Shown: positions 2,562 through 58,578 of the stretch, piece by piece | Numbering within the stretch: position 1 is the first letter of the stretch | How the letters are laid out: the number at the start of each line of letters is the position of its first letter | DNA from: Octopus vulgaris | Lineage: Eukaryota | NCBI GenBank assembly: GCA_951406725.2 | Contig: OX597826.1 | Span: 49,042,001 to 49,106,000 of the forward strand | Direction: 5' to 3' | DNA length: 64,000 nucleotides | Program-made: the position numbers and the translations under genes | The notes under the pieces: model-generated | The model's input: only the letters and a program-made list of their open reading frames with translations | Databases searched by the model: none | What the model was told of the DNA's origin: nothing

Positions 2562-2823
2562 TTTATAATATATATATATGAAATGAATACCAGTTGAACA
2601 CTAGGGTCAATGTAATCAACTTACCCCATTCCCAAACTTGTTGGCCTTGAGCCAAAATTTGAGACCATTATTATTACAGTTATGTGCAATATATATTAGT
2701 TTCAATCTTGGTGTTTTGACTTTGCCTCAACACCACCACCACCGTATATATATCTATATACACTTACATTACATTTCTTTCATTTCTTTTATATGTTTCA
2801 GCCCAAAGGTGGTGGCCATGCTG

Positions 2824-2869
<46 letters not shown>

Positions 2870-3607
2870 ATACATATATACGTATACACACACATGTGCA
2901 CACTCACATACACATGAGACGTGTTGAGAGGTGCATATATTCATGCATCCACCATACAACTTAATAATCATAATAATCATAATAATAATAATAATAATAA
3001 TCCTTTCTACTATAGGCACAAGGCATGAAACTTGAGGGGAGGGGACTAGTTCAATACATTGATCCCAGTGTTTAACCGGTACTTATTTTATCGACCCCGA
3101 AAAGATGAAAGTTAAGGTTGACTTTGTTGGAATTTGAACTCAGAATGCCGGAAGAAATGCCGTTAAACATTTCATCCTGGAAGCTAATGATTCTGCTAGG
3201 ATTGTTTCTTACTTTGATCTTTGGGAATGAGGGGACATTACCAGGACAAGATAGAAAAAAAAATTTGAAAACTTAGGGTGGTTACTCAGAACCAAGACCA
3301 ATCGATAAAAGCCATCACAAAACATCAACAATATAAAAGGGAAATGATATGAAGCATTACAAACAGGGGTGCAGATTTGTGAGCAGTGCCATTTTAATCG
3401 CATGGACACACTGAGCAGCTGCCTAAGGGCTTCAAATATTTAGGGGCCCAATTGTAATCTAAGTATGTTGTGACTTACTGTCAATCAGTAAATACCACAG
3501 GGCGAAGTGCATTGATTTACACAGTGCCTTTATATACGACTATGCTGCGAAAACTGCTTGGCCTGTAAGGGATCAATGGTGGGGGGACCCCAAAGGTCTT
3601 TGATTAA

Positions 3608-3829
3608 CCCTTTAGCATTCAGACCACTTTGTCAAGTGTAATGCTCATTTATTCAAATAATTTTGAATCAACCATGTATTATCTTGTAGTTTCAAGATTT
3701 TAATGATATGATTGCTTATCTTTACAATAACATTGTAGGGTGTGTGTGAAAGGTCAAATCTGGTTAGCTTGAGCATAAAAGAGGCAGAATATATCAGAAT
3801 ATATATTGGCTGTTTTGAGTGCTAAGGGG
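3608..3829. mobile_element. piggyBac-like MITE
   Basis: TTAA|CCCTTTAGCATTCA ... TGAGTGCTAAGGGG|TTGA: CCC-terminal inverted repeats with a TTAA-like target site. Confidence 0.7.
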
Positions 3830-4236
3830 TTGATTTTAATGTTAAGGCAAAGTGTTCCCTCTTCTGACAGTGTTATTTGGGCCATGTAAAACAATAACAA
3901 TAGCAACAACTACAACAACAACAAGTATACAATAGTTGTGGTAACTAACCATTGAGTAAATGAAGAAGCAGGTATACAGGTGTTTAATGTCAGAAATAAC
4001 AGCCATATTGACTCAAATTACACATAGGCTACTGTATTAGAGGAAGGACACACTAGGTTGTGTGGTATTGGGTATTCTGAAGCAGGAAAAGGAAGACAGT
4101 TTTAAAATGGCTTTGATGATGGATAAAATGGATCAGGGCTAAACAGCAACAACAATTACACTAATAATAACTTTGACACTACCAACAATAAAAGCAACAA
4201 CAACAATAATCGTTATGGAAGAGGAGAAAGAATGGG

Positions 4237-4267
<31 letters not shown>

Positions 4268-5084
4268 GAGGAAGGAAGGAATGGAGGGAGGGAGGGGGAG
4301 GGAAGGAAGGGAAAAAGGGTGAAAGGACAAAAGAAAAGGGAAAGAGGCAAGAAAGAAAAAGGTGAGAGAAGGAAAGAAGAGAAGAAAGAAATTAAGAAAG
4401 AAAGAAAAGGGGCAAAAGAAAGAAAGAAAGAATAAAAGAAAATGAGCGAGAGAGAATAAAAGAAAAGGAATAAAACATACAATAAAAGAATTTAAAGAAA
4501 GAAAGAAAGAAAAAAGAAAGAAAGAAAAAGAAAGAAAGAAAGAAAGAAGAAAAAAGAAAGAAAGAAAGACAGGAAAAAGAAAGAAAGGAAAAAGAAAAAA
4601 GAAAGAAAGAAAGAAAGTAAAAAAGAAAGAAAGAAAAGCTAATTATGATTCATAAGTGTCAGAATAACATAAAAACAATAACGACAACAGCAAAAACAAT
4701 AATCACAACAACAACAATAATAACAGCAAACGATACTAATAATAACAACAATAATGGTAATAAAAAAAAAGAAAACATATTGGAAAGTCTTTGTGTAGTT
4801 TTTGTCTTTGTAATATTTGTGTAGCCTGTTCTTGCAAATGTTCCAGTGATAAGTTTCCAATGGACTTTGAGAGAATGATTGTGAAAACACTTTTGTTTGT
4901 ATTAGTAAACAGGTTGTTTAACAACACAGAAAGCACATTTTTTTAATTTCTGCATGAGTAAGCAGGTTGTTTCAAATTCTATATAGGTGCTGGCCTAATT
5001 GTGTGGTTAAGAAGATTGCTTCCCAACCATGTGAATTTTTAGGTTCAATCCTACCGCATGGCACCATGGGCAAGTGTATTCTAA

Positions 5085-23869: not shown

Positions 23870-24023
23870 CAGATAGATAGATAGATATGTATATACCCAC
23901 ATGGATATCTATCTATCTATCTATCTATCTATCTTACTGTTTATATTTTTGTACTGTCGTTAGAGAGAGAGAGAGAGAGAGAGATGTATATACCCACATC
24001 TATCTATCTATCTATCTATCTAT

Positions 24024-24919
24024 CAAGGAGGGCTGGGCATGCCGTGGTTGATGATGCGCAGACACGCGCTGAGACTGCGGCATCTCTGGCTCTATGTAGA
24101 CGACGGTGAACAGGTGTGGTCGCCGTTTGTGAGGCACGCTTTCCCGCAGCTCGTCTCCATGACCGAACTGCAGTCGTGGATCAAAAAGAGGCCGAGGAAG
24201 GGCGAATGGCACCGCGAGTGTCGCGTTGCTCTCAAGCAACTCTGCCGTCCTGGGTCGACCTTAAGTGACTTCAACACAACCAAAGCATTCTATAGGGGTT
24301 TAGTGGAGGGGAGGTACGACGACGAACTCGGGGCGAACCTGGACGTCGACGAGGAGTACCTGACCCGCCTGTTCAGGACGACCTTCGGGCCAGGGCCCAT
24401 GGACAACTTCCAGAGATCCCTGGCCTGGCAGTGCTACCGAGAAGCGCTACCCGTTCGGGATAAGCTCTACAGACACGGCTCGAGAAACACGGGGCCGACC
24501 TGCCCGAGATGCGGTCAGAGCGACGAAACCGTTCTGCACGCACTCGTTCAGTGTCCAACAATTTCCGACCTGTGGGCTTATGTCGAACAACTGCTGTCAC
24601 GTGTGGGACGAGTCGGTTTATCAGCTGAGTCTATCGTCAATATTGTCACGCCTCCTTCCTTCAAACGGGAAGGAAGAGCTATTTTCATCATCCTTGTGGC
24701 TATGGCGAAAGAATGTATCTGGTGGACGCGTCTGAAAGGATTGGAGACAAACACTTTCCTCTCTGGTCAATCTCTCATCAACTTCTTCAAGTACCACTTG
24801 AAAAGGAAAGTGAGAGTAGAGAGGCAAGTTTTGTCTAGCGAATGTTTTAAAAAAGATGGGTGAATGTAGCAAGAATGGCACGTATGAATGACGAAGCCAC
24901 CTTGAGCATAGTCCTATGA
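24024..24919 (+). pseudogene. ORF2 C-terminus (post-RT region with zf-RVT-type CCHC zinc finger)
   Basis: GGLGMP motif, then W...EALPV and CPRCGQSDETVLHALVQC...LW. A one-base shift in the A-run near 24850 restores F-K-K-R-W...VL* ending at 24919. Confidence 0.85.
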
Positions 24920-40267: not shown

Positions 40268-40348
40268 ATTTATGTATGTATGTATATATATATATATACA
40301 CAGTTGTCAATAGAGTAATGCGACTGTCACTGCGTGACATAATGAAGT

Positions 40349-40412
<64 letters not shown>

Positions 40413-40434
40413 GTGAAAAGGAACACACGAGTTG

Positions 40435-40807
40435 ATATATATGAAAAAACAAGTAAAAAATAGAAAATGCTAAAATAATTTTATAGTGAACATTTCAGTA
40501 CCGGTTTCGGTCATTTTGAGACCTTTTCAACTGTAACGATTAAATAATTAAATTTAGAAAAATTAGAAGAAAAGTTTTTTTAAACTACCTCGAACACACA
40601 AGTGCAAACAAGGGAGTCAGAGAAAGGCAGAATGCCACTTAAATCTGAACACTACTATAGAAATATTCTTTTAAAAAAACTTTTCTTCTAATTTTTCTAA
40701 ATTTAATTATTTAATCGTTACAGTTGAAAAGGTCTCAAAATGACCGAAACCGGTACTGAAATGTTCACTATAAAATTATTTTAGCATTTTCTATTTTTTA
40801 CTTGTTT

Positions 40808-40819
<12 letters not shown>
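40435..40819. mobile_element. Fold-back PLE-like element with 150 bp apparently perfect inverted arms
   Basis: Arms 40435-40584 and 40670-40819, 85 bp spacer, (TA)n flanks, one hammerhead motif per arm. Confidence 0.88.
40721..40758 (+). ncRNA. Type I hammerhead-like motif with U3-A8 core (mirror copy 40496-40533, minus)
   Basis: CAG-TTGAAAA-GGTC(tcaaaat)GACC-GAAA-CCGG-T-A-CTG; palindromic ACCGGT stem III. Confidence 0.72.
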
Positions 40820-40877
<58 letters not shown>

Positions 40878-40879
<2 letters not shown>

Positions 40880-41096
40880 GACGCCATGATAGATCGTTAG
40901 CTCCTACACGCATTTTTTTTCTCTCCTTGTTTCTCTCCTTGTTTTTTTCTGTGTATCTTTCTGTCGAAGAGCGTAGGCTCGAAACGTAAAAGACTTTTTC
41001 TATTTCTATTCCTGAGCGCTATACTAATACATCTTTTGTTTATTTTCTTCATCTTTATGCCTTCATCTTTTGTTTATTTTCGTAAACTTTCCCATT
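40878..41096 (+). mobile_element. Short PLE-like element, family E2, with hammerhead-like motif at 40956-40993
   Basis: TCTTT-CTGTCGA-A-GAGC(gtag)GCTC-GAAA-CG-T-A-AAAGA. Related copies at 54170-54350 (-) and 58400-58580 (+). Confidence 0.7.
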
Positions 41097-41154
41097 ATAT
41101 ATATATATATATATATACACAGTTGTCAATTGTGTAACGCAACTGTCACTGCCT

Positions 41155-41192
41155 AAACCTGATGATTGCGTAATGCATGAAAGTACTGGTTT
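41155..41192 (+). ncRNA. Hammerhead-like motif with canonical CUGAUGA core
   Basis: AAAC-CTGATGA-T-TGC(gtaat)GCA-T-GAAA-GTAC-T-G-GTTT; palindromic AGTACT; G at position 17 is predicted non-cleavable. Confidence 0.55.
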
Positions 41193-41365
41193 TATCACAA
41201 TAAATATACAATATTCAAATATTATAATATTGTAAAATTGTAAAAATATGTAAATGATAAAATGTGAAATGTGAAAGTAAGAAAATGTGAAAATGTGAAA
41301 GTAAGACGAGGTTGGAATTTCTTTGGTTAATATATTCTTCTATACACAATCATACAAGTTCGGAG

Positions 41366-58150: not shown

Positions 58151-58578
58151 ATCAGTGGCATACGTATGCATGCATCTATGGATGGATAGATAGATGGATG
58201 CATGCATGGACATGTGTGTGTGTGTGTGTGCATGTTTATGTATGTATGTGTGTGTGTGTATGTATGTATGTATGCATGTATGTGTGTGTGTATGTATGTA
58301 TGTATGTATGTATGTATGTATGTATGTATGTATGTATGCATGCATGTATGTATGTATGTATGTATGTATGTATGTATGTATGTATGTATGTATGTATGTA
58401 GATCGCTAGCCACTACGCATTCTTTATTTTCTCTCCTTGTTTCTTTCTGTGTTCCTTTCTGTGGAAGAGCGTAGGCTCGAAATGTTAAAGACATTTTTAC
58501 TTCCCGAGTGTTAAACTAATACATCTGTCTGTTGTCTACACCACCTGTCTTCGTCTTTTTTTTGTGTGAATTCTCCCC

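Follow-up and report, generated by a model that had tools for sequence, protein, structure and literature searches.

In L1 twin priming, two nicks in the target prime two cDNAs, which are joined through microhomology to give an inversion; the second primer anneals at an internal position, and there is hardly any overlap of the two pieces. Inverted copies have also been described for Penelope-like elements (PLEs), and two papers call it an open question how these copies and the accompanying tails are formed (PMC8557442, PMC11167929). The purified protein of an Anolis PLE nicks and extends both strands, with reverse transcription starting from two internal sites, which delimit the tail (PMC11167929). 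PLEs may also carry hammerheads: the U3-A8 core is a published PLE hammerhead variant, and Schistosoma PLEs bear dual hammerheads on opposite strands, 100-700 bp apart (PMC4209133). Minimal PLE hammerheads in the literature cleave poorly or require the protein of the element (PMC4209133, PMC11167929). The layout of the locus described below (an inverted copy, a tail and a U3-A8 core) is already published for PLEs, and the locus is a further case of it.

We analysed a 64-kb stretch of octopus DNA (the window; C13:49042001-49106000), in which an earlier note, made from the sequence alone, had described a fold-back with perfect 150-bp arms. The arms, 40435-40584 and 40670-40819, are indeed exact reverse complements (150 out of 150 positions), lie 85 nt apart, and show no outward or inward extension of this complementarity at either end. 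The note gave the fold-back as 40435..40819 and spoke of a spacer. We found that the element continues to the left through a tail (40410-40434) overlooked earlier, and that the 85 nt belong to the right copy, being contiguous element sequence that forms the unpaired 5′ part of this longer copy. The features of the locus and of its right-hand neighbourhood are as follows (copies are mapped in coordinates of the element).

40352..40409, no strand: left part of the (TA)n target tract, read from the sequence
40401..40584, minus strand: left copy, an inverted, shorter 3′ end running through the tail to the second site (+42); maps to -141..+42
40410..40434, minus strand: non-TA part of the 34-nt tail, on the left arm only
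40491..40538, minus strand: mirror hammerhead, predicted cut after position 40499 (arm complementarity, descriptor)
40583..40584, no strand: head-to-head junction with 2-nt microhomology (AA), from the BLAST-mapped ends of both copies
40583..40819, plus strand: right copy, a 5′-truncated PLE 3′ end (pLTR); maps to -228..+8
40716..40763, plus strand: minimal type I hammerhead with U3-A8 core and palindromic ACCGGT, predicted cut after A40755 (descriptor, folding)
40812..40845, no strand: right part of the (TA)n target tract, read from the sequence; its first 8 nt are common to the element end
40880..41096, plus strand: fragment of an older hammerhead-bearing family, likely another PLE; best other copies 88-92% identical
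41116..41365, plus strand: fragment of a still older hammerhead-bearing family; other copies 69-91% identical, with opposite-strand partners at some loci

The right copy is 100% identical over 237 nt to a native parent unit in L067 and stops at the short site (+8, C-ATATATAT) inside the (TA)n tract, while the left copy is 98.9% identical to the parent unit over 184 nt. In tandem arrays the sequence of the tail sits between the short end and the following ORF1. Because the target is (TA)n, a target-site duplication is unreadable at the locus. The right 248 nt of the locus have 100% matches at 33 other loci (40 candidates were scored), six other fold-backs of similar size were found, and the scored part of either locus arm carries no substitution relative to the family majority. 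The locus is almost certainly a non-coding stub of a young PLE, and we are fairly confident that it consists of two PLE 3′ ends placed head to head in (TA)n by reverse transcription primed from both strands. Similar insertions number roughly a thousand or more, and the locus itself is probably without function. A six-frame scan revealed no clear coding exon of a host gene near it, no PLE RT was found elsewhere in the 64-kb window, and no RNA record was listed as holding the locus sequence.

Each arm holds the hammerhead motif reported earlier, CAG-TTGAAAA-GGTC(7)GACC-GAAA-CCGG-TA-CTG, at 40721-40758 on the plus strand and at 40496-40533 on the minus strand. The elements of a minimal type I hammerhead (3-8 pair, stems I and II, palindromic helix III and an NUH site) are present; stem II has 4 bp and is closed by a G-C pair, the GUA site lies at 40753-40755 with A40755 as position 17, and stem I is extendable to 7 pairs with one A-A mismatch. 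A relaxed hammerhead descriptor gave two matches in the window, both of them the locus arms, and one match in 30 shuffles of the window. Rfam returned nothing at gathering score for the locus; Hammerhead_HH9 was seen on both arms below threshold only (19.7 bits, E 0.071). MicroRNA matches in the Rfam search were rejected as chance matches on microsatellites. The 38-nt hammerhead has 1,765 exact copies in the genome (0 for the control) and is nearly invariant, with 130 out of 144 scored copies identical in a selected sample.

The earlier note regarded the locus as the best candidate for a functional, dimer-cleaving ribozyme. In silico, two free copies of the motif do cofold to a dimer with an intermolecular ACCGGU helix III (-25.7 kcal/mol, versus -9.1 kcal/mol for one copy). 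The idea of a dimer, however, holds for two separate copies and not for the locus, where a hairpin is predicted to mask the motif. Since the hammerheads are on opposite strands, one transcript contains one sense motif and its perfect antisense. In the plus-strand transcript of the fold-back the pair probabilities of stems I and II were 0, and both strands, the minimum-free-energy structure of the minus strand included, folded to one long hairpin (-235 and -243). When the inverted arm was left out, the stems were still weakly populated (0.15-0.23 for stem II and about 0.01 for stem I). The hammerhead in the fold-back is thus predicted to be locked in a duplex of 150 bp. Predicted masking, weak stems and the published poor or protein-dependent cleavage together make the locus a poor place for ribozyme activity. 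The hammerhead would be cargo of the pseudo-LTR, and its activity, if it has any at all, would be found in tandem parent transcripts or with the protein of the element.

A search for the autonomous parent, as the earlier note had suggested, was successful: the parent is present in the same genome as a 4.4-kb PLE that encodes RT plus GIY-YIG, instead of the DDE transposase named in the note as the contrary outcome. On their upstream side, longer copies of the family cross a microsatellite and continue into an ORF that contains an RT domain (RVT_1, E 3.5e-8, YLDD motif) and a GIY-YIG domain. The latter matches PF01541 at 21.1 bits (E 3.8e-4), slightly under the 22.6 cut-off; inspection revealed IYSLTCSGC...YIG with two His downstream and the Cys/His arrangement of the CCHH type, and PF01541 is present in many homologs of the parent RT-EN protein. 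At E ≤1e-30 there are 498 homologs of the parent ORF among 7,995 scored proteins. Six homologs of the parent protein (P0029, P0072, P0074, P0077, P0078 and P0092) are filed under bacterial gill symbionts of bivalves, which is probably host contamination of those assemblies; comparable cases are noted in PMC8557442.

A complete unit of about 4.42 kb is found in a tandem array on C9, in the order tail, ORF1 (411 aa), 784-codon frame in -1, 3′ region and hammerhead. Tandem or partial-tandem units forming pseudo-LTRs were seen in this array and at L071, L103, L104 and L108. The hammerhead sits in the pseudo-LTR, with the predicted cut 124 nt before the ORF1 ATG. Both frames are open in 5 out of 11 distinct full-length units, which, together with the number of exact hammerhead copies and the arms free of substitutions, agrees with the earlier suggestion of a recent insertion from a possibly active family. 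The linker CGRPNCGIC (CxxxxCxxC) is located at residue 650, with RT before EN, and the 3′ flanks of the family are TA runs in nearly all loci inspected. A CX2-5CxxC linker is common to Neptune and Nematis (PMC8557442). As judged from sequence, the linker motif and the (TA)n targeting point to an EN+ PLE of the Neptune type.

In the parent element the two ORFs (L066:5001-6236 and 2710-5064, minus strand) meet at a slippery-type site, U UUU UUA. The ORF junction reads CAT TTT TTA GAC in 34 out of 34 matches (some of them from overlapping loci), with RT-EN in the -1 frame. The top homologs span 95-96% of the RT-EN frame, versus 91% starting at the first internal ATG, and frameshifting is therefore favoured at the junction. 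No stable structure was found 3′ of the slippery site (-1.8 kcal/mol), and a stimulatory pseudoknot is therefore unsupported. ORF1 has no Pfam match at cut-off. The ORF1 of PLEs may be separated by a frameshift (Craig et al., PMC8557442, Fig. 1 legend). A literature search for Penelope-like frameshifting with slippery site or GIY-YIG returned nothing, and the present family was not found described, by title or abstract, in the literature on octopus PLEs and hammerheads, the supplements of which may hold it.

The arms of the locus are thus the 3′ end of an RT element, and this makes it difficult to see the fold-back as a self-contained mini-element, MITE-like or ribozyme-based, that would transpose whole and carry two working hammerheads. 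In favour of such an element are the perfect terminal inverted repeats in a TA target and the six other fold-backs of similar size. Each fold-back, however, has its own breakpoints, and sizes differ by locus from about 60 nt to over 4 kb; the junction pattern of the locus has a single match genome-wide (2.8-Gb assembly, 227 contigs); and the two hammerheads lie on opposite strands, with masking predicted. We consider this explanation extremely improbable. Membership was likewise rejected for MITEs or Foldback DNA transposons, on the unique junction, the variable breakpoints and the RT parent, and for non-LTR retrozymes (in bioRxiv 10.64898/2026.07.22.740005, non-coding head-to-tail hammerhead units), since the copies are head to head and the tandem unit is coding and 4.4 kb long.

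Two more hammerheads, at 40956 and 41155, had been noted to the right of the fold-back. These are real hammerhead-like repeats of two families, but they are older and their cores depart from the hammerhead, one being CUGUCGA and the other having G at position 17; both fail the relaxed descriptor. The CUGUCGA core is found in 5 out of 8 inspected copies of the 40880-41096 family, with U or other letters, not A, at position 6, and may be either a family-level variant or decay. Relatives of this family are located at positions 58399, 54317 and 36718 of the window, and at one out of 11 other loci (L155) a PLE-like RT-EN frame lies just upstream of the relative. A 37-nt piece of the other family (41116-41152) is also present within 40297-40353 (89%), adjoining the left of the target tract; this piece and a microsatellite are flanked by a 16-nt direct repeat (at about 40172 and 40337). 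The (TA)n tract of the locus looks like a repeated landing site of PLEs. Far to the left, at 23964-24860 (plus strand), the window contains a 299-codon open frame with a CxxC...H motif, which we take to resemble the C-terminal region encoded by non-LTR retrotransposon ORFs.

The 3′ end of the element comes in two forms, +8 (short) and +42 (with the 34-nt tail), both entering (TA)n. In the query-selected sets, that is loci chosen via end-bearing or ORF queries, 53 out of 54 fold-backs had one short and one tailed end. Since these sets were chosen by ends or ORF, a second sample was taken by the exact motif alone, comprising all 61 exact-motif loci on C1:1-114.1 Mb, with ends read directly from the sequence. 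Fold-backs make up 22 of these 61 loci, about a third. All 21 fold-backs with two motifs had one short and one tailed end (one of the tails stops near +29), the chance of which is at most 0.5^21 if the ends are independent; the 22nd has a tiny inverted arm with a partial tail. The single copies were short at 29 loci and tailed at 8, and 2 further loci were set aside. By-eye assignments were made for L192 (short), L183 (dropped, 3′ end missing), L220 (fold-back) and L184 (set aside, two same-strand copies). In both sets combined, 73 out of 74 distinct fold-backs are short and tailed and none has two short ends, the exception being L101, whose arms both carry a tail (to about +29 and +42). At L101, L177 and L220, minor 3′ ends fall within the tail (about +26 to +29), TTTTCA there mimicking the short end. 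L139 (C1:133.33 Mb) and the L097 region contain fold-backs of the family that adjoin or are nested in one another. The near-strict pairing of short and tailed ends is what this family adds to the published picture, although supplements or subscription papers may already state it.

Two other origins of the fold-back were considered. If two independent insertions had occurred, the second into the 5′ end of the first, and had later been homogenised, strict pairing of ends would not be expected, nor would direct head-to-head junctions without TA between the arms, or fold-backs at as many as 22 out of 61 loci. Such nesting is very improbable, even though (TA)n tracts attract repeated PLE insertion and two other families lie within 550 bp of the locus. 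An assembly artefact, in which a read folded on itself or two repeat copies collapsed, appears just as improbable. A mirrored read would mirror flanks and ends as well, whereas here the tail and the flanks differ and the spacer is one-sided. Furthermore, 74 fold-backs of the same biology are distributed over a large number of contigs, and each of the four independent runs, whose contigs cover 30 out of 30 bins of the sequence, has contigs with other inverted joints within the locus sequence. An artefact would be compatible with the identical arms and with the homopolymer slips common among family copies; there is also no junction-spanning contig among those listed, which is uninformative.

To describe how the arms are joined, we used the 49 simple fold-backs (54 minus 5 complex loci). 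The arm reaching further 5′ was the tailed one in 18 and the short-ended one in 21; the two ended within 20 nt of each other in 9, and 1 was unclassified. An overlap of at least 2 nt was found at 23 out of 35 junctions without filler, versus 15% for random joins (p about 1e-11), though the overlaps were read from BLAST ends and may be inflated. The remaining 14 of the 49 junctions contain filler instead of microhomology. Fillers of 13-30 nt at the L004, L072, L095, L103 and L106 junctions are short repeats of nearby element sequence, as if two cDNA ends had primed on each other more than once.

Variants were compared between the arms of 47 fold-backs; the comparison leaves out 17 loci that are tandem or complex, and within the arms the internal microsatellite, indels and 12 nt per 5′ end. 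The arms share 48 variants, versus 5.7 expected (14 private, 0.2 expected, and 34 segregating, 5.5 expected), and differ at 8 segregating sites, versus 69.6 expected. This excess indicates that both arms usually trace to one source, and could in part be due to gene conversion between the arms or to polishing of the assembly. The 8 discordant segregating sites, in turn, do not fit a single template molecule. Private differences between arms amounted to 52 in 31,999 nt; therefore about four in five arm pairs of 150 nt are expected to be identical, and the perfect arms of the locus are unremarkable.

Variants common to both arms far above chance, microhomology at junctions and the nearly symmetric junctions in 9 out of 49 fold-backs would also be explained by snap-back or self-priming, where a single strand folds back and serves as its own template, a mechanism put forward for the inverted repeats of PLEs on an antisense template (PMC3846280). 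This explanation is also compatible with the 18 cases in which the tailed arm is longer. Snap-back, however, copies one arm from the other, and the copy therefore cannot gain sequence absent from its template. In 21 out of 49 fold-backs, including the locus, the loop-bearing arm is tail-less and the other arm tailed; the shorter tailed arm is therefore not a copy of the tail-less one. Snap-back thus seems unlikely to us as the origin of the fold-backs. The short and tailed pairing, the free arm lengths and the shared variants favour two-strand priming, and the inverted copies of the family probably arise by priming from both nicked strands.

In this two-strand scheme, the GIY-YIG domain would nick both strands of (TA)n. 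One 3′-OH would pair with AUAUAUAU, 56 nt beyond the hammerhead site (+8), and the other with UAUACAUAU, 34 nt further (+42). The two sites could be in a single RNA, or in a pair of RNAs or units that stem from one source locus. Both cDNAs would halt early at independent points and be joined via a few matching bases or a short filler, whereas extension of one end alone would produce an ordinary single copy, usually short-ended. Since the starts of the Anolis element are non-homologous to its target and the ends of the present family match (TA)n, the mechanism is transferred by analogy. The 8 tailed single copies indicate that +42 is usable alone, which counts against the scheme, as do L101 with tails on both arms, the 14 out of 49 junctions with filler and the 8 discordant sites.

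More tentatively, and with somewhat less than an even chance in our view, one PLE RNP may use two (TA)-matching pads 34 nt apart, either on one RNA, where the second RT would displace the first cDNA, or on a pair of sister RNAs joined by the ACCGGU dimer helix. If true, two-ended integration of PLEs would normally yield a fold-back with a tail, and the hammerhead might serve for pairing and not for cutting alone. A young, high-copy family with open ORFs and two sharp ends gives countable rules that separate snap-back from two-ended priming. In addition, about one in three sampled insertions is a perfect inverted repeat of up to several kb, and such repeats are a predicted source of dsRNA that could feed silencing or editing.

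The proposed scheme differs from L1 twin priming in that both octopus cDNAs would start at the 3′ end, 34 nt apart, and would overlap to give a palindrome. Among described PLEs, the family resembles the Neptune-type EN+ elements (PMC8557442; a similar layout is described for Adineta Pen2a_Av, PMC3846280), which have RT with C-terminal GIY-YIG and a CX2-5CxxC linker. Like the octopus family, Neptune-type elements form partial tandems, have an inverted 5′-truncated copy and a tail of 30-40 bp at one end, carry a hammerhead near the 3′ end, target microsatellites and may have a frameshifted ORF1 (PMC8557442). In these papers the tail is ‘optional’ or ‘often only at one end’ (PMC8557442, PMC3846280), whereas in the octopus family the pairing of short and tailed ends was counted and is near-strict. 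PAc/Poseidon_Ac of Anolis carolinensis shares with the family two RT starts that bound the tail, an AT-rich target and a minimal hammerhead upstream (PMC11167929). Its starts, however, lie in an AC-rich stem-loop described as non-homologous to the DNA that is cut, and there is overlap between its hammerhead and the start of the ORF (PMC11167929); in the octopus family 8-9 nt of both ends match (TA)n, and the predicted cut precedes the ORF1 ATG by 124 nt. Finally, the hammerhead of Schistosoma mansoni Cercyon has the same U3-A8 core, G10.1-C11.1 pair, palindromic helix III and dimer design as the octopus motif, but the S. mansoni helix II is 7-8 bp long with a 5′ bulge (PMC4209133), whereas the octopus helix II has 4 bp and no bulge.
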